Shown here piece after piece: positions 38,786-46,510 of a stretch of 64,000 bases of DNA. The notes under the pieces are model-generated. The model searched no databases and was not told the origin of the DNA. It was given only the letters and a program-made list of their open reading frames with translations. The first letter of the stretch is position 1. Each line of letters starts with the position of its first letter. The stretch lies in the IMG/VR virus record IMGVR_UViG_3300025921_000002, positions 1-64,000 of that record; one strand, given 5' to 3'. The translations under genes and the position numbers were made by a program. Source of the stretch: a virus.

Positions 38786-39417
38786 CAGTTGCCGTAGCAG
38801 GCGCAACGTTAACATATAAAGTAGCTAAAGGTATTTCTGATAAGCACACCGCCAACCAGATTGATAAGGGCAATCCCTTTCCTACAGAAAACGTACAGCC
38901 CGAATATCAGGAAAACGTTAATCAGGCACAGCAAATGGCTCAAACTGGCCTACCCGAACAGCAATATAATAACCAGCTTAATAATATTCAACGAAACCAA
39001 GCGGGGGGCTTAATGGCTATTTCGCGCTCCGCTAACCCCGGTGCTAACGTAGCTTCTATATTAAGAACAGGCAACGACTCCACCAATACCCTGAACGCAC
39101 AGGACGCTATGATGCGTAACCGCAATCTTTTAAACCTTTTAAACCAAAGGATGCAACTGGCTCAACAAAAAGACAAGGCATGGGACTGGAATCATCAACA
39201 AAGATATTTACAGAACTTGGCCAAAGCCAACGCATACAGGAGCGCAGGTAATCAAAGCATCAATTCGGGGGTAAGCGAAGCCGCAGGAACAGTGACAGCC
39301 GCTAATGGCGCAGGAGCATTTTCAGGAGGAGGTGGTGGTATGGGTGGAGGCGGTTATTCAGGCGGATTTACAGATAGTTCCGCAGGTACAGGTCAACAAT
39401 TTGCATCCTACGCATAA
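38773..39417 (+). CDS. Internal virion/ejection protein (small)
   Basis: MSWVAVAVAG hydrophobic start, Gln/Asn-rich coiled coil and Gly-rich tail. Confidence 0.7.
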   Translation: MSWVAVAVAGATLTYKVAKGISDKHTANQIDKGNPFPTENVQPEYQENVNQAQQMAQTGLPEQQYNNQLNNIQRNQAGGLMAISRSANPGANVASILRTGNDSTNTLNAQDAMMRNRNLLNLLNQRMQLAQQKDKAWDWNHQQRYLQNLAKANAYRSAGNQSINSGVSEAAGTVTAANGAGAFSGGGGGMGGGGYSGGFTDSSAGTGQQFASYA

Positions 39418-40775
39418 TGGCAGAGATACAACCAAACTGGAACTCTTATTACAGCCCACAGGCTTACGATACCTTTAAAGGCAATCCCGGCCTCGACGAC
39501 CTTAATAAACGCTATGCCCAAATAGAAAAGGATAGGGAACTTGACAGACAGTTATTAGGTCAGCAAATCTCTAAAATGAACTTTGGTGGCGTTAAGCCTG
39601 CCGACGTGGGTGACCTGCAAAACCAGTACAACGATATTCTAAACGCCTATCAAAAGGCAAGGTCAATCACCGACCCTATGAAACGGGCGCAACTGACTAT
39701 GGAGTTGAGGCAGAAGATGAACGGTCTGCAATATAACGTGGAGAATAAAAAAGAGAACCACAGTCAGGAATTAAAGATGTTCGAGCAAATGAACCATCCT
39801 AATGCTTTCCCGGCTGACAACGCACAACAATTAGTAGGTGATGTGATAGGTACACCAACCGGAAGCCCCGAATATCAAACAAAATTAGAGGCTTTCAGAA
39901 ACGGTTGGCAGGATAAACCTGTTGACTTGGGAAAACTAACAACAACAGCCTTTACTAAAAACCTGACCAAAAGCACCAATTCAGGGCAAGAAATAAAAGA
40001 CCCCGCGACAGGACTTTTCAGGAATCAGATTATCAAAACCTCTGATGTTCCAAAAGCCGCTTACACCAACGAGATTGTAAACAGCGCATTAGGCGACAAA
40101 AGAACACTACATACCATAAGTAAGCTATACCCTGATTTGCCACCTGCACAAGCAGTTACACAATTTGCAAATGATAGTTATGAAGACCAAAAGCGTAAGT
40201 TGATAAGTGACACAACTTATAGCGCACCGCATATGAGTTATGACCAACATTTAGGCTTACAGGAAAATGCTGCAAGGCTTAAATCTAAATACCCATCGTT
40301 CGGTCAACAGCAAAACCTTACACCAATTTATAGGCAAAAATTAGTTGGTGATATGTTGAATGGTGTGCCGGGAAGTGGCGAAACTTTAGTCAATAAACTA
40401 AAAGCAGACCCATCCTATCAAAGACCTTTGGGTATTAAGGTAAATGGAGATAATATTCAATTTACAATACCCGATAAATTAAAAAATAAAATAGATAGTG
40501 ATGGAAAACCGTCGTGGCAGGTAGAAGTTCCTACACGGGTTGTTACAATTAATAAAAAAGACCCAAATGCAGATGTTCAGCTTAACGAATTAGTTAACCA
40601 ACTTACAGGCGAAAAAGTTGACATTTCCTCTTTAAGGACACAAGGCGGTAAAAAGCATGTTGCAGTTTCGGTTAGCAGTCAACCTGCAAAAGTAACCAGT
40701 CAAGACGAATACAATAAAGTACCTAAGGGCACTCAATACATAGCACCTGATGGTAAAATTTATATCAAAAAATAA
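39417..40775 (+). CDS. Internal virion/ejection protein (medium)
   Basis: Position; C-terminal EYNKVPKGTQYIAPDGKIYIK motif. Confidence 0.6.
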   Translation: MAEIQPNWNSYYSPQAYDTFKGNPGLDDLNKRYAQIEKDRELDRQLLGQQISKMNFGGVKPADVGDLQNQYNDILNAYQKARSITDPMKRAQLTMELRQKMNGLQYNVENKKENHSQELKMFEQMNHPNAFPADNAQQLVGDVIGTPTGSPEYQTKLEAFRNGWQDKPVDLGKLTTTAFTKNLTKSTNSGQEIKDPATGLFRNQIIKTSDVPKAAYTNEIVNSALGDKRTLHTISKLYPDLPPAQAVTQFANDSYEDQKRKLISDTTYSAPHMSYDQHLGLQENAARLKSKYPSFGQQQNLTPIYRQKLVGDMLNGVPGSGETLVNKLKADPSYQRPLGIKVNGDNIQFTIPDKLKNKIDSDGKPSWQVEVPTRVVTINKKDPNADVQLNELVNQLTGEKVDISSLRTQGGKKHVAVSVSSQPAKVTSQDEYNKVPKGTQYIAPDGKIYIKK

Positions 40776-43700
40776 TGGGACAATTTAGCTGGACTCCACC
40801 ATCAACTGATGAACCTGTAAAGAAAACAGGATGGACTCCACCTGCTTCTGATATTCCTGTCGTTGAAAAAAAAAGTCCAGTTGGCAACGCTTCTGTGGCT
40901 ACCTCAACGCAGTCTGGCGATGGCTCAAGTCCTTCCCCTCTCCAACAAAGTCTTACTAATGCTATGAAAGCGTATAGCATTACGCATACGCCAAAAGAAG
41001 TTAGTGATGTTCAAAACACAGTAAGCCAACAAAAACAAGAGGATAAAATAGCAAGAACCCCCGATGCTGTAGTTGCCCATGAGAAATACATGGAAACACC
41101 CTTAGGTAAAACACAGGGCGCTTTTCAATATGTTGGCTCTAAAGCCTCTAAAGGTGCTTTACAGATAGCTAAAGGCGCTACGTGGCTATATAATCATACT
41201 TCGGCCAATCCAATTCAGGGAATGATTGATGAAGTAAGTAATCAGCATAAAGGACAGGAAGATTTTTTCAACAAAGCAGATAAGGCAACTAACTTAGGTT
41301 TGACAGCTACCGACCTGCAAAACATTGAAAGCAATAAAGGTATAGGTGCTTCTGCCTTACGCACCGCAGGAACGTTCGCCGAGATAGCGCCAACAATATT
41401 AGGCGGCGAAGCATCTGGCGCACCAAAACTTGCCTTTGCATTACAGGGATTAGGACAGGGAAAAGAAACAATGGATGCAGTTGACCCCGACCATAAAGTT
41501 AACCCTGCAATAAGGGACGGCTTTATAGCCCTGAATGGCGCTTTTAATGCCGCTTTAATGGGTGACGCAGCAGAAACTAACTTTGCTAAAATGCCTGCCG
41601 CATTACGCGGTAAAATAAGTTCAGCTTTAGCTATGGACGCTATTAAGCAAAATGGCGAAAAAGAAATAACTGGTGAACTTGTTGACCATACCGTAAAAGA
41701 CTTTGCCCATAACTTTTATAAATTAGGCACAGACTATGTACAAAAGGTAGCCCGTACAGGCGTTGACCTTTCAGCATTGCAAGCAGCAACTGGCTTAGCT
41801 AAATATGGTGTAAATAAAGCAAGTGGGCAGGAGGTTTTTAAAAATCCCGCAGGAGAAACCGCAGAAGGGGTAAGCAACGCTGTTTTACAGCAAGCACCTG
41901 TTTTTGGTGCAGCAGGTACAGTAGGTGACCTTTCAAAGTTAACTCCTTATTCATCTTTTAAAAACGAGGTTTTTGAGAATATTGTTAAAGACCCAAGCCA
42001 AACAGATGCTATTAAACAGGAAATAGCACAACATGGTCAGGAAAGAGGATGGACACCGGAAGAAATTCAGGCCACTAACGACCATATTGACCAAATAAAA
42101 ACAGTAGCGCAAAGACTCCCTGAAACTATTAAACCTGAAAAAAAATCAGATGCAGTTCAATTAGTACTTGATCGGGATGCCCTAAAGAAACAACTGGCTA
42201 ATGAAGTTGGTAAAAGAGGCGCGATGGATGAGTCTGTTAAGGATTTGCCTAATGCTCACGAAGAATGGCTTACTGACAAGATTGAGCAAGCGAACGATAA
42301 GTTAAGGGCTATGGCTACGGGCAAGCGTACAACTTATTCTAAAGGCGTTGGCGACGAGGAAGGAAAGTTCTTCAAAACTACCAACGGCGAAAAGGAAGAA
42401 ATAACTGAAAATAGGTATAACTTAGAGAAGTTAGAACGCACAGCAAATGAAAATACTAATGAACAAGAAAAAATAAACAACAATGAAAAAATCAGCAACC
42501 AAAGCGAACAAGAAAGCGGTGTTCAGCAAACCGCCAGCGGGGAAAAAGTGGCAGAACAGCCCGGCAACCCCACCGAAAGCGTCCAAGCCATCGGCAACGG
42601 TAGTAGCGAAAATGAAGAAAGGCTGTTAACAACAGGGGGTGAACAGCCCCCTTTAAAAGCCATTAAAAACAAGGTTGATGAAAAAAATGCTCAAGACCCG
42701 GATTTTTCAGAAAAGAATTATGACGCATGGGAAGAGCACCGAATGGGTTTGGAAAAACAAATATTCCATGAGCCAATAGATGAAAATTTACCCATTAGTG
42801 AAAATATTAAACTTTTAAATAAATCATTAGAACCTGAATTTGAAAAAATAAAACAAGTTATAGGCGATGATGAAGTTGCTGATAAGTATATTTCAGCTAT
42901 CCAACGTAACCCAAAACGTGCTGAAAAAATAAGGAATGAATTACCAAAAGATGTTCAGGGTAAACTATTCAACCGAATAAATGAGGATGATTTTGAAGAT
43001 AATAAACAGCAAACTGACGAATTTGAACATCTTAATTCAGAAAGCGATAGGGATATAACAGACGAAATGAAATTTTCATGGATAGGGAAAAAAATAACCT
43101 CTCCATCCGACATGCAAAAGCCATTTAATCGAGTTATTGTGAAGGATTTAATTTCCCAATTGGCTGACAAGGGTTATTCGCAGGAAGAAATAGTCCGAAG
43201 GGCTATGCAAGACCGTGTTAGTCGGGGCGATAATGCCGAGCATGTAACTGAATTGGTTAAGGCTGTTTTGGAAGAACACGGTAAAAAATCTGAACCACAA
43301 CAAAAACAAATAGAAGGAGGTAAAAATGCCACTAAAACCGGGAACATCGAAGAAAACAATCAGCAGCAACATCAAGGAACTGTTGGACAGCAACAGGGGG
43401 TCGAAGAAAATCGGCAACACCAAGAAGAACCTGTCGCTAAAAGCCAAACAGAAACAGGCGGTAGCAATAGCATTGAGCAAGGCGGCCAAGTCAAAAAAAC
43501 AATCCTAACTAAACGAGCCTACGAAGGAGAGATACAGCTCGAAGTAAAAAAGCATCTTGAAGAAAAGGGGCTGACACGTAAGTCATTCTCACAAGAGGAA
43601 CGCTCTAAACAAGCTACCGACTTTATTAATAAGTTTGGTGAAGAAGCGGCACAAAAAGCAGTTGAAGCAGGAGATATAGACGGTGGTATGGCCGCATCTG

Positions 43701-45898
43701 TATTAGCACAACTAAAAATAAAAACCGATAAGGCAATGTCCGATTTCCCCGAAGGAAGTGAGGAACGCGATGCTTTGGCTAAAAAGCAAGCCGACATAAT
43801 AAACCTCATGGAAAAAAAGGGTTATTTAGGCGGTGAATTTAACGGGCAGTTAGCGCATGAATACCAAAACGCTGAATTAGACTTTGCCAATGTTAAAAGA
43901 CAAGTTGAGGACTTAACTAAAAAGCCACTTACCGCAGGTCAGGAAAAGAAGATCAAAGAAATTACTTCTGAAAACGAAAAGCTAAAAGCACAATTACAGG
44001 AAGCCGAAGCTAAGCTAATTGAAGAAACTGACAAGGCTTTTGAATCTGGCAAAGAAGCCGCTAAAACAGAAACCAACGCTGAAAAAGCAAAAAGAATAGC
44101 TCAAAAACTAAGAGATAATGCCAAGCTAAATAAACCGGGCATTTTTTCTGCGGCAACACCTGCATCTTTAATTTGGGACGGTGCTATTGAAGTAACAGCC
44201 AAAAGCATTGAAGCAGGCGGTAAACTGGCTGACGCTATTGAAGCAGGTATCAAACATATCAAAGCAAGCGATTGGTATAAAAACCTGCCTGCAAACAAGA
44301 AAGAACTTGCTGAAAAAGAGTTTAAACGTGTTAATTACGAACATTCAGGCAGTACCGATGTAGAGGACTTGCAGGAAAGGTTTGTTGACAAAACCGACAA
44401 TAAGTTCACCCCCAACGAGGCTAAAGACATTTGGGGCTACATGAAGAAAACCTATATTGAAAATGGCACTTCATATCGGGATGCCCTTTCAAAAACAGCC
44501 GAAGATTTAGGGCTTTCTTGGAGGCAAGTTAGCGAAGCCGTAACCACGCCAAAGGTCAAAAGAATGTCGGATGAAATGTGGAAACGTCAATCCGAATACA
44601 CCCGAAACAGAACCGCTATTAAGAATTGGATAGATACTCAAACAGCTAATCCTTTTATGAAAGCCCTTAGAAAGGTTTCAGGTGCTTTTAGGGGGTTGGC
44701 TGTATTTGGTCACGGTGGCATATTTGTTGGCACACACGCGGGTACGACAGTATTTAATCCGTCTATGTGGAATAAAACAATACCTGCTTTTTTTAGAGGT
44801 TGGAAGTTTGCCTACGGAAACGAGGGTAATTATCAGCGTTCAATGGAAGAATTAAAAAATTCTCCAAATTATCTTATTGCTCAAAGAGCGGGTTTGAAAA
44901 ATAATCCTGAAAGAATAAATACAGAGGAATATCAAAAATCTCAACAATATTTAGGCAGAGCAGGATTAGCCGGAGAAAGAGGATTTAATGCCATAAAAGT
45001 GCTTCGGCAGGACTTATTTGACTATCATTTCAATAAACTGTCACCTGCGGAAAGAGATGACCCGGAAGTAGCTAAGAGCATAGCTAAATTAGTTAATTTG
45101 GCTACAGGAGCGACTAACTTAAAAATACCATCATGGGTACAAGAAGTTTCATTTGCCGGGGGTATGGAGGGTTCAAGATGGGAAAAGTGGCTAAGAAGCC
45201 CCGCAGAGGCCGCAGATATTGCCATGAAAGCCATATTCACGCCTGACAAAGCAACTACCGAGGAGCGTATTTTTGCAAAAGTATGGGCAAGACGGGTTGG
45301 TGAGCAATTGGCCACATTCAGTGCGCTACTTTTAGCTAATTCTGCTATTCAAAATACTTTAAATCCTAAAAATCCTGTAAATTATACAAACCCCGATAAG
45401 CCGGACTTTATGAAATTTAAGTTTGGAGATAGGACTATTGACCCAACATCGGGCATGTTAGGTGTAGGAAAGTTTATATATAAAGTAGGTAAATTACCAT
45501 TCCAAAGCGAAAAAGAATTACATGGTGATAAAAAGATTGCCGCTTTAGGTAAGGATTTGCTTCAATACGGTAGAGGAAAACTTGCTCCATTTTATGGCAC
45601 GGTAGCCGATGTATTTACAGGAAGGGATTTTAACGGAAACCCGCTACCATATAGTAAGGAAAAACCGGGTAAAGGGCATCATAAATTAGGTTATGGAGAG
45701 TACGCTTTAAGTAAAGCCCCGTTGCCGGGAGCGGAAGCTGCAAATGTTACTTATAAATCAGCCGAAGAACATGGAGCGCATGTCCCTACATTGGATGATG
45801 TGATAAAAGGATTCTGGTCAGGGGCTATTTCAGGGGCAACAGGATTTAGGGTTGGCGAATACGATGCCAACTCCCCTGAAAATAAAAAGAAAAAATAA
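40775..45898 (+). CDS. Large internal virion/ejection protein (1707 aa)
   Basis: Size, Ala/Gly-rich then helical composition, position after the smaller ejection genes. Confidence 0.7.
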   Translation: MGQFSWTPPSTDEPVKKTGWTPPASDIPVVEKKSPVGNASVATSTQSGDGSSPSPLQQSLTNAMKAYSITHTPKEVSDVQNTVSQQKQEDKIARTPDAVVAHEKYMETPLGKTQGAFQYVGSKASKGALQIAKGATWLYNHTSANPIQGMIDEVSNQHKGQEDFFNKADKATNLGLTATDLQNIESNKGIGASALRTAGTFAEIAPTILGGEASGAPKLAFALQGLGQGKETMDAVDPDHKVNPAIRDGFIALNGAFNAALMGDAAETNFAKMPAALRGKISSALAMDAIKQNGEKEITGELVDHTVKDFAHNFYKLGTDYVQKVARTGVDLSALQAATGLAKYGVNKASGQEVFKNPAGETAEGVSNAVLQQAPVFGAAGTVGDLSKLTPYSSFKNEVFENIVKDPSQTDAIKQEIAQHGQERGWTPEEIQATNDHIDQIKTVAQRLPETIKPEKKSDAVQLVLDRDALKKQLANEVGKRGAMDESVKDLPNAHEEWLTDKIEQANDKLRAMATGKRTTYSKGVGDEEGKFFKTTNGEKEEITENRYNLEKLERTANENTNEQEKINNNEKISNQSEQESGVQQTASGEKVAEQPGNPTESVQAIGNGSSENEERLLTTGGEQPPLKAIKNKVDEKNAQDPDFSEKNYDAWEEHRMGLEKQIFHEPIDENLPISENIKLLNKSLEPEFEKIKQVIGDDEVADKYISAIQRNPKRAEKIRNELPKDVQGKLFNRINEDDFEDNKQQTDEFEHLNSESDRDITDEMKFSWIGKKITSPSDMQKPFNRVIVKDLISQLADKGYSQEEIVRRAMQDRVSRGDNAEHVTELVKAVLEEHGKKSEPQQKQIEGGKNATKTGNIEENNQQQHQGTVGQQQGVEENRQHQEEPVAKSQTETGGSNSIEQGGQVKKTILTKRAYEGEIQLEVKKHLEEKGLTRKSFSQEERSKQATDFINKFGEEAAQKAVEAGDIDGGMAASVLAQLKIKTDKAMSDFPEGSEERDALAKKQADIINLMEKKGYLGGEFNGQLAHEYQNAELDFANVKRQVEDLTKKPLTAGQEKKIKEITSENEKLKAQLQEAEAKLIEETDKAFESGKEAAKTETNAEKAKRIAQKLRDNAKLNKPGIFSAATPASLIWDGAIEVTAKSIEAGGKLADAIEAGIKHIKASDWYKNLPANKKELAEKEFKRVNYEHSGSTDVEDLQERFVDKTDNKFTPNEAKDIWGYMKKTYIENGTSYRDALSKTAEDLGLSWRQVSEAVTTPKVKRMSDEMWKRQSEYTRNRTAIKNWIDTQTANPFMKALRKVSGAFRGLAVFGHGGIFVGTHAGTTVFNPSMWNKTIPAFFRGWKFAYGNEGNYQRSMEELKNSPNYLIAQRAGLKNNPERINTEEYQKSQQYLGRAGLAGERGFNAIKVLRQDLFDYHFNKLSPAERDDPEVAKSIAKLVNLATGATNLKIPSWVQEVSFAGGMEGSRWEKWLRSPAEAADIAMKAIFTPDKATTEERIFAKVWARRVGEQLATFSALLLANSAIQNTLNPKNPVNYTNPDKPDFMKFKFGDRTIDPTSGMLGVGKFIYKVGKLPFQSEKELHGDKKIAALGKDLLQYGRGKLAPFYGTVADVFTGRDFNGNPLPYSKEKPGKGHHKLGYGEYALSKAPLPGAEAANVTYKSAEEHGAHVPTLDDVIKGFWSGAISGATGFRVGEYDANSPENKKKK
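42483..42629 (+). CDS. Nested +1-frame 48-aa Lys-rich protein
   Basis: MKKSATKANKKAVFSKPPAGKKWQNSPATPPKASKPSATVVAKMKKGC, preceded by the A-rich leader aataaacaaca. Confidence 0.5.
   Translation: MKKSATKANKKAVFSKPPAGKKWQNSPATPPKASKPSATVVAKMKKGC
43326..43508 (+). CDS. Nested +1-frame 60-aa Lys-rich protein (MPLK.G.S.KTIS.NI.E...QKQAVAIALS.A family)
   Basis: Recognisable small phage protein pattern; GAAGGAGG-TAAAA-ATG upstream. Confidence 0.75.
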   Translation: MPLKPGTSKKTISSNIKELLDSNRGSKKIGNTKKNLSLKAKQKQAVAIALSKAAKSKKQS

Positions 45899-46417
45899 TT
45901 AACACTTTCTATTTTTTCTATATTCAGCATTTCTCGCTAATACCATTTCTCTATTATTTTGGTAATATTCAGCTTGTTTTCGCTTATTACTTTCGGCATT
46001 ATTTAATCGCCACTGTTTTTGATATTCCCTTTCTAATTCTACGCAGCCGTCGCACCTGCATCCATTTCTAAACATGCTTCTTGATGGACATTGCGCCGTT
46101 GGCAATCTTCCTTTGTTCTGTGCATCATTTATATTTTCTTTATTTGTGCCTATCCACAAATGAAATGGGCTAACGCATTTTCTATTATCACATCTATGGC
46201 AAACAAACATTCCTTCTGGAATTTCTCCAATATAAAATTGATAAGAAAATCTATGTGCAAGTATTCTTTCTTGTTTTATCTTAAAATTACCATAGCCGCT
46301 TACATTTAATGGAGATTGCCATTCCCAGCATTGCGTTTCTGGATTTATAAGATATTTTTTTGTAAATCTTTCTATTGGGGATACCGCTAAATAATCCTTT
46401 CTCCCAAGTCCAGCCAT
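45899..46417 (-). mobile_element. HNH homing endonuclease (probable start 46417)
   Basis: CWEW......GYG.F......AHRFSY....GEIP.G..VCHRCDN..CV.P.HL..GT..EN..D, plus a C-terminal GCRCDGC shared with the 37028 HNH. Confidence 0.93.
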
Positions 46418-46426
46418 AGTAATAAA

Positions 46427-46510
46427 AAGTCCTGTTCCGGGTTCAAGCGATTGCGCCACTCTCCCCCAAAACAGGACTCTAAATATCTTTATTCGGAGCG
46501 CAATTCCGAT
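46427..46510 (-). ncRNA. HNH-leader pseudoknot RNA, copy 3
   Basis: CGGA-ATTGCGC-TCCG ... GGGGGAGA-gtg-GCGCAAT-cgc-TTGAACCC, downstream of TACCTTCG (46526-46519). Confidence 0.7.

Follow-up and report, generated by a model that had tools for sequence, protein, structure and literature searches.

A conserved adenine run near the start of a giant phage virion-module gene as a probable recoding site with two predicted products

Introduction

Does a run of nine adenines located 30 codons into a 1707-codon gene of an uncultivated phage simply encode lysine residues within a giant protein, or does it also give entry to a second, much shorter product in the -1 frame? The gene is part of a 75-kb genome, of which a 64-kb window (the whole stretch of DNA that was analyzed) is considered here. 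Transcriptional slippage on a 9-nt homopolymer underlies production of the tau and gamma proteins from dnaX of Thermus thermophilus, run lengths of 9–10 are reported to slip efficiently in bacteria, and polymerase stuttering is known at Ebola GP/sGP (A7), paramyxovirus P/V and potyvirus P3N-PIPO (PMC5009743). Comparison across homologous loci, which is an analysis of sequences, indicates that the site in the window very probably is a real and selected recoding site with two products. Given such a site, transcriptional slippage would probably be the main route to the second product. No published description of this recoding site was found.

Results

The giant gene is encoded in the virion/packaging module, as terminase, portal, virion and tail genes are located at 21.9–39 kb and fibre-like genes lie downstream of it (Table 1). 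The TAA codon of the upstream gene overlaps the ATG of the giant gene (TAATG), and the final ~35 residues of the upstream protein co-vary with the type of N-terminal motif in the giant protein across loci. The giant protein matched no Pfam family at E ≤ 0.01 and no PHROG, and the upstream protein matched nothing in either collection. Homologues of the giant protein (n = 28) share a conserved N-domain (about residues 95–565) and possess variable C-terminal halves. The predicted structure of the N-domain is all-alpha, with a model of mediocre quality (pLDDT 62); Foldseek searches with this model, a PDB profile search and the ESM Atlas produced nothing usable for the giant protein. The N-terminal motif differs among homologues, but invariably is present in two copies that are placed before the run. 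The WTPP version was considered as a targeting motif shared with other phage proteins and was rejected, as it was found only in this gene and in one chance match. The terminase shares just 25% identity with its counterparts from Flavobacterium and Cellulophaga podoviruses, and the hosts probably are Bacteroidota, with MAG binning pointing to Mucilaginibacter. The INPHARED phage collection contained zero DNA or protein matches to the giant gene or to the alternative-frame peptide: within the scope of that search, the recoding system is in no cultured relative.

Table 1. Positions of the features in the 64-kb window.
Feature	Position	Strand	Basis
Upstream gene, 452 aa, no Pfam/PHROG match	39417-40775	+	ORF list
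Giant virion-module gene P0001, 1707 aa, 0-frame product	40775-45898	+	ORF list
First WTPP motif, common to both predicted products	40790-40801	+	Translation
Second WTPP motif	40832-40843	+	Translation
TGA stop closing the tail frame upstream, directly 5' of the run	40864-40866	+	Translation
A9 slippery run, GAA AAA AAA AGT	40866-40874	+	Codons 31-34; read from sequence
Heptamer A_AAA_AAA, 0-frame phase	40867-40873	+	Sequence
Tail-frame (-1) predicted coding stretch, 30 codons	40867-40956	+	Translation, leave-group-out HMM, AlphaFold
TAA stop of the predicted short product	40957-40959	+	Sequence and translation

The ATG at 40775 sets the codons GAA (31), AAA (32), AAA (33) and AGT (34) at the run, exactly where an earlier note on this DNA had placed nine adenines. 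The run is the longest homopolymer in the window. The complete genome includes two A9 runs; the second (66342–66350) was rejected as another recoding site because its position is intergenic. Translation of the -1 frame up to the TAA codon was identical to the peptide quoted in the earlier note, and the predicted product that carries the doubled WTPP N-terminus is 61 aa, in agreement with the ~61 aa given there. The alternative-frame segment of this product, termed here the tail, consists of KKK followed by an amphipathic, Trp-rich helix and an F-P-x-P end, and overlaps a Ser/Pro-rich linker in the giant protein. The description of this linker as low-complexity and Ser-rich is borne out by a content of 70% S/T/P/G/N/Q and zero aromatic residues over the same bases. 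The proposed basic amphipathic helix likewise is supported by a helical moment of 0.57, a net charge of +7 and a helix that AlphaFold predicts for tail residues 5–22. Taken alone, the open -1 frame in the window is weak evidence, since openness of this length or more is found at 4% of the -1-frame positions in the same gene (p ~0.04). Its significance derives instead from the homologues.

An A run is present at the same place in 22 of 24 related phage lineages, comprising 12 examples of A10, seven of A9, two of A7 and one of A6; thus, 19 lineages possess A9 or A10 and three possess short runs. Long A/T runs are avoided elsewhere in the homologous loci: among 18 A/T runs of at least 9 nt in 146.8 kb (22 non-redundant homologous loci), 17 are at the homologous site, a number that includes the run of L022 which was assigned to the site by a separate analysis. 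Locus L050 contributes one more A10 beyond these 17. AAA is used for all Lys codons at the site compared to 66% in gene bodies, and none of the 12 KKK triplets located away from the site is encoded entirely by AAA. Where the run starts at a third codon position, the preceding codon always ends in A (background 35%). Furthermore, a length of 9–10 is held despite different encoded residues (EKKS, QKKS, VKKKA, LKKN, and others), and run starts are found in codon phases 0, 1, and 2. The run is therefore conserved at the nucleotide level beyond the need of the encoded residues. Loci L011 and L015 are without the run and stop codons fill their -1 frames; this joint loss of run and tail was counted as support for a selected recoding site. 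A separate gene for the tail peptide was sought in these two loci and not found, in a search of limited sensitivity that likewise failed to detect the divergent short tails in L020 and L022. A second scan of IMG/VR that was seeded from the divergent clade yielded zero new contigs.

The tails form a family across loci in which the helix ends W[LI][KR]x[FY]Px[FY]P. They align mostly gap-free with an invariant residue W19 and, in most cases, a PxxP-type end; in the 15 loci with the latter, the stop codon is located 0–5 codons from that end. Thus, both features for which the earlier note had sought conservation in homologues, the A run and the -1 frame, are kept. When hidden Markov models were built with each group left out in turn, the tail was the top-ranked six-frame ORF in 17 of 17 loci, with E values from 5e-7 to 6e-14 in 15 of these and weaker values for L017 (1e-3) and L019 (4.5e-3). 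In a search of every six-frame ORF in the 64-kb window, the window tail scored E = 5e-7. The tail frame was the highest-scoring frame in 17 of 17 loci, with mean scores of 30.6 bits compared to 12.8 bits for the less conserved frame of the giant protein and 17.2 bits for the third frame. The corresponding values in the window were 22.3 bits (tail frame), 5.2 bits (0 frame), and 4.2 bits (+1 frame), of which the first is the third-lowest leave-out score for a tail frame; of all the tails, that of the window is the most divergent at its end, which reads FPSPTKSY versus FPKFP. Third positions of tail-frame codons show the highest nucleotide variability. The tail frame is open across 16 representatives with a Fisher p of ~3e-12, a combined value that overstates independence because the loci share ancestry. 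The codons ATG, GTG, and TTG are absent from 17 of 18 tail ORFs, including that of the window. The alternative-frame peptide accordingly is conserved as coding sequence, and the tail is reachable only through the run and not by its own initiation.

The arrangement of frames around the run is not uniform. In L020 and L021 the ATG and the doubled motif share the frame of the tail, with the giant ORF at +1, whereas in L022 and L023 an ORF of 69–72 aa ends in the tail and the frame of the giant protein (-1) opens exactly at an A10 run. The giant ORF therefore is 0, +1, or -1 relative to the N-terminus depending on the clade. A further example is P0033, a called protein of 105 aa that comprises the doubled motif, KKK, and the tail (E = 4e-10 against 1.8 billion proteins); P0033 was not found in IMG/VR. 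Judged from their reading frames, the two permuted clades would produce the short peptide in frame and would require a +1 or -1 shift for the giant protein. Each of the two arrangements is backed by two independent samples. Although the giant ORF is out of frame in these consensus genomes, it is intact over more than 1300 codons, from which it follows that the ORF must still be expressed. Automatic annotation misses the short product entirely, and wrongly starts the giant gene of the permuted clades at an internal ATG.

Transcripts from the region were represented in one metatranscriptome in which two RNA contigs, 40713–40874 and 40865–41051, break at the run. A DNA contig of similar depth crosses the run. 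The RNA contigs are assemblies with a depth of 2–4, in which length variants of the run would not show, and their breaks are at most a weak hint of transcriptional slippage.

Discussion

We infer that both products are made. Standard decoding would yield the 1707-aa virion-module protein, and a shift to the -1 frame on the run would yield the ~61-aa protein in which residues 1–33, with two WTPP motifs and the Lys cluster, are followed by a basic, aromatic amphipathic helix of 27 aa that terminates with F-P-x-P. In the favored route, RNA polymerase would add an extra A on the homopolymer of 9–10 nt to produce a mixed pool of mRNAs, and the in-phase A_AAA_AAA heptamer may add some -1 ribosomal frameshifting. 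The site displays four properties of bacterial-type slippage sites, namely an A/T run of ~9 nt or more within a coding sequence, conservation at the nucleotide level, an ORF in the alternative frame that is accessed only via the run, and independence of codon phase with more than one usable alternative frame.

The main competing explanation, that ribosomes slip on A_AAA_AAA and all mRNAs retain the genomic A9, is distinctly less probable than slippage by the polymerase. An in-phase heptamer is present in all loci, those with A6 and A7 included, and the three short-run lineages, L016 (A_AAA_AAC), L009, and L024 (both A_AAA_AAA), possess it in the correct X_XXY_YYZ phase without exception. Moreover, L024 has acquired a lineage-specific, GC-rich hairpin insertion of 21 nt at a distance of 3 nt past the run, and the downstream fold in L009 is significant (z = -2.3). 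The phase in all three short-run lineages and the hairpin in L024 point to ribosomal frameshifting at least there, and this route seems likelier in the few lineages with A6 or A7. However, seven adenines would suffice for ribosomal frameshifting, yet 19 of 22 lineages maintain 9–10. A stimulatory hairpin or pseudoknot 5–9 nt downstream is not conserved: a clear GC hairpin is seen in L024 alone and a weaker fold in L009, the 3' region in the window folds no better than shuffled sequences (z = +0.8), that in L007 is essentially unstructured, and the fold of the alignment lacks a conserved helix (-1.05 kcal/mol). Nor is the alternative product in the -1 frame in all members, as the giant ORF of L020 and L021 is +1 and its product would need a +1 (or -2) shift. 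Between the two routes that the earlier note had left open, the evidence leans to transcriptional slippage over -1 ribosomal frameshifting because the modal run of 9–10 corresponds to the length of the RNA:DNA hybrid and to the length that slips efficiently in bacteria, because all three codon phases are used, because the +1 arrangement is out of reach of a -1 ribosomal shift, and because 3' RNA structure is neither conserved nor significant.

An improbable alternative is phase variation at the DNA level, in which replication slippage at A9 or A10 would generate phage subpopulations, some coding for the giant protein and others for the short peptide, while neither RNA nor protein would be recoded. 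Homopolymers as long as this one are hypermutable, and the fixation of different frame arrangements in related lineages reveals that indels in the tract have occurred during evolution. Nevertheless, the permuted arrangements are stable consensus states that recur in independent samples, and the out-of-frame giant ORF has been preserved without interruption. A DNA contig with a depth of 38 also shows a single run length, although contigs hide minor variants.

It is very improbable that the run is merely a Lys cluster in an A-rich genome, with the -1 ORF as a shadow of conservation in the 0 frame. KK or KKK is conserved in the 0 frame of homologues, the genome has 40% GC with an A-rich coding strand, and the openness of the frame in the window by itself gives p = 0.04. 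Against this, the exclusive use of AAA, the lengthening of the run by flanking codons, and the avoidance of long runs elsewhere are properties of the nucleotide sequence. In addition, conservation in the tail frame exceeds that in the 0 frame in every locus, third-position variability tracks the tail frame, run and tail have been lost together, and the tail is encoded in frame as a called gene in some lineages. Finally, an overlapping gene in which the tail ORF has its own start codon is scarcely credible, as the window ORF begins immediately after a TGA codon without ATG, GTG, or TTG and start codons are missing in 17 of 18 loci.

With selected recoding by slippage as the preferred explanation, a function for the two products can be envisaged. 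The earlier note had suggested a tail that may be membrane-active, possibly in a pilot peptide for genome ejection. The doubled N-terminal motif may act as a docking module whose target possibly is the C-terminal domain of the upstream gene product. The short form would then fill docking sites of the giant protein and offer a small membrane- or protein-binding helix in place of a 190-kDa body. Speculatively, and with a low probability in our estimation, the run might be a frame-agnostic dosing device that fixes the ratio of giant protein to mini-protein. The docking partner of both forms would be the C-terminal domain of the upstream virion protein, a domain that co-varies with the type of motif; the mini-protein would occupy docking sites, not all of which can accommodate a 190-kDa body, and would expose its membrane- or partner-binding helix at ejection. 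If correct, this would be a previously undescribed principle of assembly and ejection in an entire lineage of uncultivated phages, the hosts of which probably are Bacteroidota.

The closest parallel is dnaX of T. thermophilus. Both systems involve a 9-nt A/T run within an ORF, a long product from mRNA of genomic run length, a shorter product with the same N-terminus from slipped mRNA, and no need for a stimulatory RNA structure. The dnaX frames of other bacteria have the opposite arrangement, in which it is the long form that needs the shift, and this is comparable to the permuted clades. In contrast, the shifted frames of dnaX run into stop codons very soon and the short form is simply truncated behind a large common segment, whereas here only ~33 residues are common to both products and the shifted frame would add a conserved, functional-looking tail of 27 aa from bases that also encode the linker in the giant protein. 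The sequences are unrelated.

The tail-assembly-chaperone frameshift of tailed phages, typified by lambda gpG/gpGT, similarly is a conserved recoding event in a virion-module gene that provides a pair of proteins with the same N-terminus, presumably at a fixed ratio. However, the G/GT shift is a -1 shift by the ribosome, takes place close to the 3' end of a small gene between those for the major tail protein and tape measure, and produces a longer, rarer product. The predicted shift described here is 30 codons into a gene of 1707 codons and would lead to a much shorter product; there is no homology and no PHROG or Pfam match to a chaperone. In the viral stuttering sites, polymerase slippage on an A run also generates proteins with the same N-terminus and different C-terminal parts, and the Ebola genome, like the L022-type clade, encodes the short form and needs an extra A for the full-length protein. 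Those examples are in eukaryotic RNA viruses that supply an RNA-dependent polymerase themselves and have shorter runs, unlike a dsDNA phage that presumably is transcribed by a bacterial-type RNA polymerase.

The site adds a well-supported and deeply conserved case to the short list of recoding sites in dsDNA phages, and is the first to be described for this family of giant virion-module proteins, probably from Bacteroidota phages. The location of the 27-aa tail over a disordered linker offers clean dual coding in which the stronger constraint is on the alternative frame. The range of run lengths (6–10), the single lineage with a gained hairpin, and the three frame arrangements constitute a natural experiment that could separate slippage from ribosomal frameshifting.

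The giant gene also resembles those for polyvalent, virion-packaged giant proteins (Iyer et al., 2017; PMC5512222), a study in which frameshifting and slippage are mentioned zero times. P0001 is without a recognizable enzymatic domain and so differs from polyvalent proteins, which are defined by several unrelated enzymatic domains. The likeness resides in the location of the gene among virion genes, in the conserved N-terminal and variable C-terminal regions, and in two homologues that carry domains of this kind: a PBECR3 nuclease domain in P0014 (91 bits) and a weak, sub-threshold match to ART-PolyVal in P0017.

The A9 run and its two reading frames

The ORF of the giant gene begins with an ATG that shares bases with the upstream stop codon (TAATG). 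Counted from this ATG the run falls in codons 31-34, and across codons 30-34 the window reads GTT GAA AAA AAA AGT. An earlier note on this DNA had described the run at these codons as GAA-AAA-AAA-AGT; the same coordinates and phase were found here. In the -1 frame a TGA is followed by 30 sense codons up to a TAA, exactly as the note had stated. This peptide (the tail) has a net charge of +7 and a W/F/Y content of 23%. The 0 frame over the same bases encodes a Ser/Pro/Gly/Thr-rich linker with 70% STPGNQ and no aromatic residues, which bears out the note's low-complexity Ser-rich linker. The run is the longest homopolymer of the window. The 75-kb virus record (G000) has just a single further A9, which is intergenic, flanked by small ORFs and not within a long ORF. 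Taken alone, the open -1 frame of the window is unremarkable: open stretches of equal or greater length occur at 4% of the -1-frame positions of the giant gene.

Coordinates of features in the virus record and in homologous loci of related phages (L numbers)
Feature	Position	Strand	Remark
Terminase, portal, virion and tail genes	21.9-39 kb		Before giant gene
Upstream gene	39417-40775	+	
Last ~35 residues of upstream gene	40670-40775		Matching ends compared in L004-L029
Metatranscriptome contigs	40547-41051		
Giant gene	40775-45898	+	1707 aa, P0001
Run with flanking codons	40862-40876		
TGA of -1 frame	40864-40866		
A9 run	40866-40874		
Tail	40867-40956		-1 frame
TAA of tail	40957-40959		
HNH endonuclease gene	45899-46459	-	Pfam HNH_3, E = 2e-9; adjoins stop of giant gene
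Large beta-helix/Ig proteins			Past giant gene and HNH endonuclease
Further A9	66342-66350		L049:1501-1509; outside window
A9 within giant gene	L015:5000-5008		
GC-rich hairpin	L024:1603-1625		21 nt
Insertions after run	L005:2533-2685; L008:2467-2610; L017:2125-2304		20-30 codons

Conservation of the run

The comparison set was DNA of another 23 non-redundant lineages, drawn from IMG/VR, metagenomes of JGI/NCBI and a single MAG. In all 23 the N-terminus consists of a short motif in two copies, then a Lys cluster and a low-complexity linker; the doubled motif varies by lineage (WTPP, DPFAKYGG, DWSQYEV, DPLGIL, DGLPIL, LPDMP or longer helical modules). A run of A residues lies at the Lys cluster in 22 of the 24 lineages, the window counted (A10, n=12; A9, n=7; A7, n=2; A6, n=1), and 17 of the 18 A/T runs of at least nine in 146.8 kb from 22 of these loci, that of L022 included, are at the homologous site. 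Lys codons at the site are all AAA compared to 66% in gene bodies; elsewhere, each of 12 KKK triplets contains a codon other than AAA. In every case of a run beginning at codon position 3, the codon before it ends in A (background 35%), and run length stays at 9-10 although the encoded residues vary. On this comparative evidence selection acts on the run as nucleotides, beyond the lysines alone.

The only long run off the conserved site in 147 kb, an A9 encoding N-K-K-K-G, is deep within the giant gene of L015, a lineage that lacks the N-terminal run.

The shifted frame as coding sequence

Across lineages, few gaps are needed to align the tail-frame peptides. In the common pattern KKK and four variable residues precede R-[FCW]-x-x-[YW]-[LCI]-x-x-I-x-x-W, which continues as [LIW]-[KR]-x-[FY]-P-x-[FY]-P with a stop 0-5 residues later; the peptide is longer in three lineages, and in another three it is a shorter aromatic-basic form. 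In leave-group-out HMM searches the tail was the best match among all six-frame ORFs at 17/17 loci; its E value was 5e-7 when the 64-kb window was searched. Of the 17 E values, 15 were between 5e-7 and 6e-14, and the weakest were those of L019 (4.5e-3) and L017 (1e-3). When the same nucleotides were scored per frame, the tail frame gave 30.6 bits versus 12.8 for the frame of the giant gene and 17.2 for the third, and was the top-scoring frame in every locus. Column entropy peaked at the third position of tail codons (1.24 bits versus 0.99 and 1.01), which is the second position of the codons of the giant gene. Frame openness combined over 16 representatives gave p ~3e-12, a value that is generous because the loci are related. 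Judged from these comparisons, the shifted frame is evidently conserved coding sequence.

ATG, GTG and TTG are absent from 17 of 18 tail ORFs, and in many of these ORFs a stop no more than three codons ahead of the run closes the frame; thus, the tail is reachable solely via a frame shift on the run. The run-less lineages L011 and L015 have no tail either, their -1 frames being full of stops, and a search of limited sensitivity found no tail-like sequence elsewhere in their contigs.

Three loci (L005, L008 and L017) carry an insertion after the run across which both frames are open, resulting in a dual-coded stretch of 45-57 codons. Within it a ..F-T-H-G-Y-x-P-T..E-D-type motif in the 0 frame and an additional aromatic-basic helix in the tail frame each appear conserved.

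Permutation of the frames between clades

In L020 and L021 (two samples) the upstream-abutting ATG and doubled motif are in frame with the short tail as a 46-aa ORF, and the giant ORF proceeds in the +1 frame from an A9. In L022 and L023 (two samples) the N-terminal module, KKK and amphipathic tail form a single ORF of 69-72 aa, and a protein of 70% identity (P0031) belongs with them. The giant frame (-1) becomes open precisely at an A10, with its first ATG 40 codons beyond. A profile search against 1.8 billion proteins also recovered a called 105-aa protein (P0033, E = 4e-10) that combines a doubled motif, KKK and a tail of the long type in a single frame. The product pairing therefore is conserved, but the genome-encoded member of the pair is not.

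Probable route of the proposed recoding

The run very probably is a genuine, selected recoding site, and the comparative evidence supports the earlier proposal of a short isoform arising by a shift on it. Transcriptional slippage is the probable main route: each codon phase and both of the alternative frames are in use, runs of 9-10 match the length of the RNA:DNA hybrid, and no conserved 3' RNA structure was found across loci. Bacterial RNA polymerase slips efficiently at such run lengths, as used by Thermus dnaX (PMC5009743). A weak hint of slippage is provided by one metatranscriptome in which contigs stop at 40874 and resume at 40865; a DNA contig of similar depth spans the run. Short contigs from 40547-41051 occur in two rhizosphere metatranscriptome libraries; since they may stem from DNA carry-over, they do not prove transcription of this segment.

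Ribosomal -1 frameshifting is less likely as the main route. In its favour are an in-phase A_AAA_AAA heptamer throughout, the correct phase in all three short-run lineages, and a GC-rich hairpin, specific to L024 and inserted 3 nt past its A7, that may be a frameshift stimulator offsetting the short run. This hairpin, absent from other loci, adds seven residues to the L024 tail. DNA-level variation or a mixture of routes is less likely still.

Slippage or frameshifting at poly-A that yields products with identical N-termini is a mechanism of known kind. The present case differs from known ones in the gene family, in the location of the site (after 30 of 1707 codons), in the short shifted product with its conserved trans-frame tail, in dual coding dominated by the alternative frame, and in the permutation of frames between clades. 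Full-text literature searches found no published description of this site.

Genomic setting and the giant protein

The window makes up 64 kb of an IMG/VR virus record of 74,996 bp and ~40% GC, and sequencing runs containing the sequence are from rhizosphere and soil. The closest cultured phages by terminase comparison are Flavobacterium and Cellulophaga podoviruses (25% identity). A 57.9-kb relative with an A10 and typical tail (L050, MAG contig CAZZVY010000001.1) was binned in an uncultured Mucilaginibacter MAG, which points weakly to Sphingobacteriaceae as the host family.

For the giant protein, no match was obtained in Pfam, PHROG or PDB sequences, or by fold. Its conserved N-domain (~residues 95-565), predicted with modest confidence to be all-alpha, is common to the homologues, whose C-terminal halves differ; a PBECR3 nuclease domain (91 bits) occurs in one homologue and an ART-PolyVal match below threshold in a second. 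This C-terminal diversity and the putative enzymatic domains fit virion-packaged polyvalent proteins (PMC5512222), a definition outside which the window's own giant protein falls. The paper on that type mentions neither frameshifting nor slippage.

Predicted properties of the short product

A helix is predicted over residues 5-22 of the tail (pLDDT ~91 mid-helix), followed by a non-helical F-P-x-P end. Helical moments are 0.5-0.9, usually above those of shuffles, and every tail is basic (+5 to +13). The tail end fits [KR]-x-aromatic-P-x-aromatic-P in most lineages, a pattern that suggests a resemblance to a PxxP ligand. These properties are compatible with a putative membrane-surface helix, as proposed earlier, or a putative protein-docking peptide.

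The C-terminus of the upstream gene product co-varies with the doubled-motif type of the giant gene: ..LPKG..PDG..Y.K accompanies the WTPP type, ..GYTE.QI.EA.KLGTLK the DPLGIL type and ..KKAA.DYGL the VYAALKDNL type. The co-variation may reflect docking of this C-terminus on the N-terminal motif or plain linkage of adjacent DNA. In L010, L012 and L018 the tails and N-domains are near-identical, yet the upstream end and the motif type both differ.
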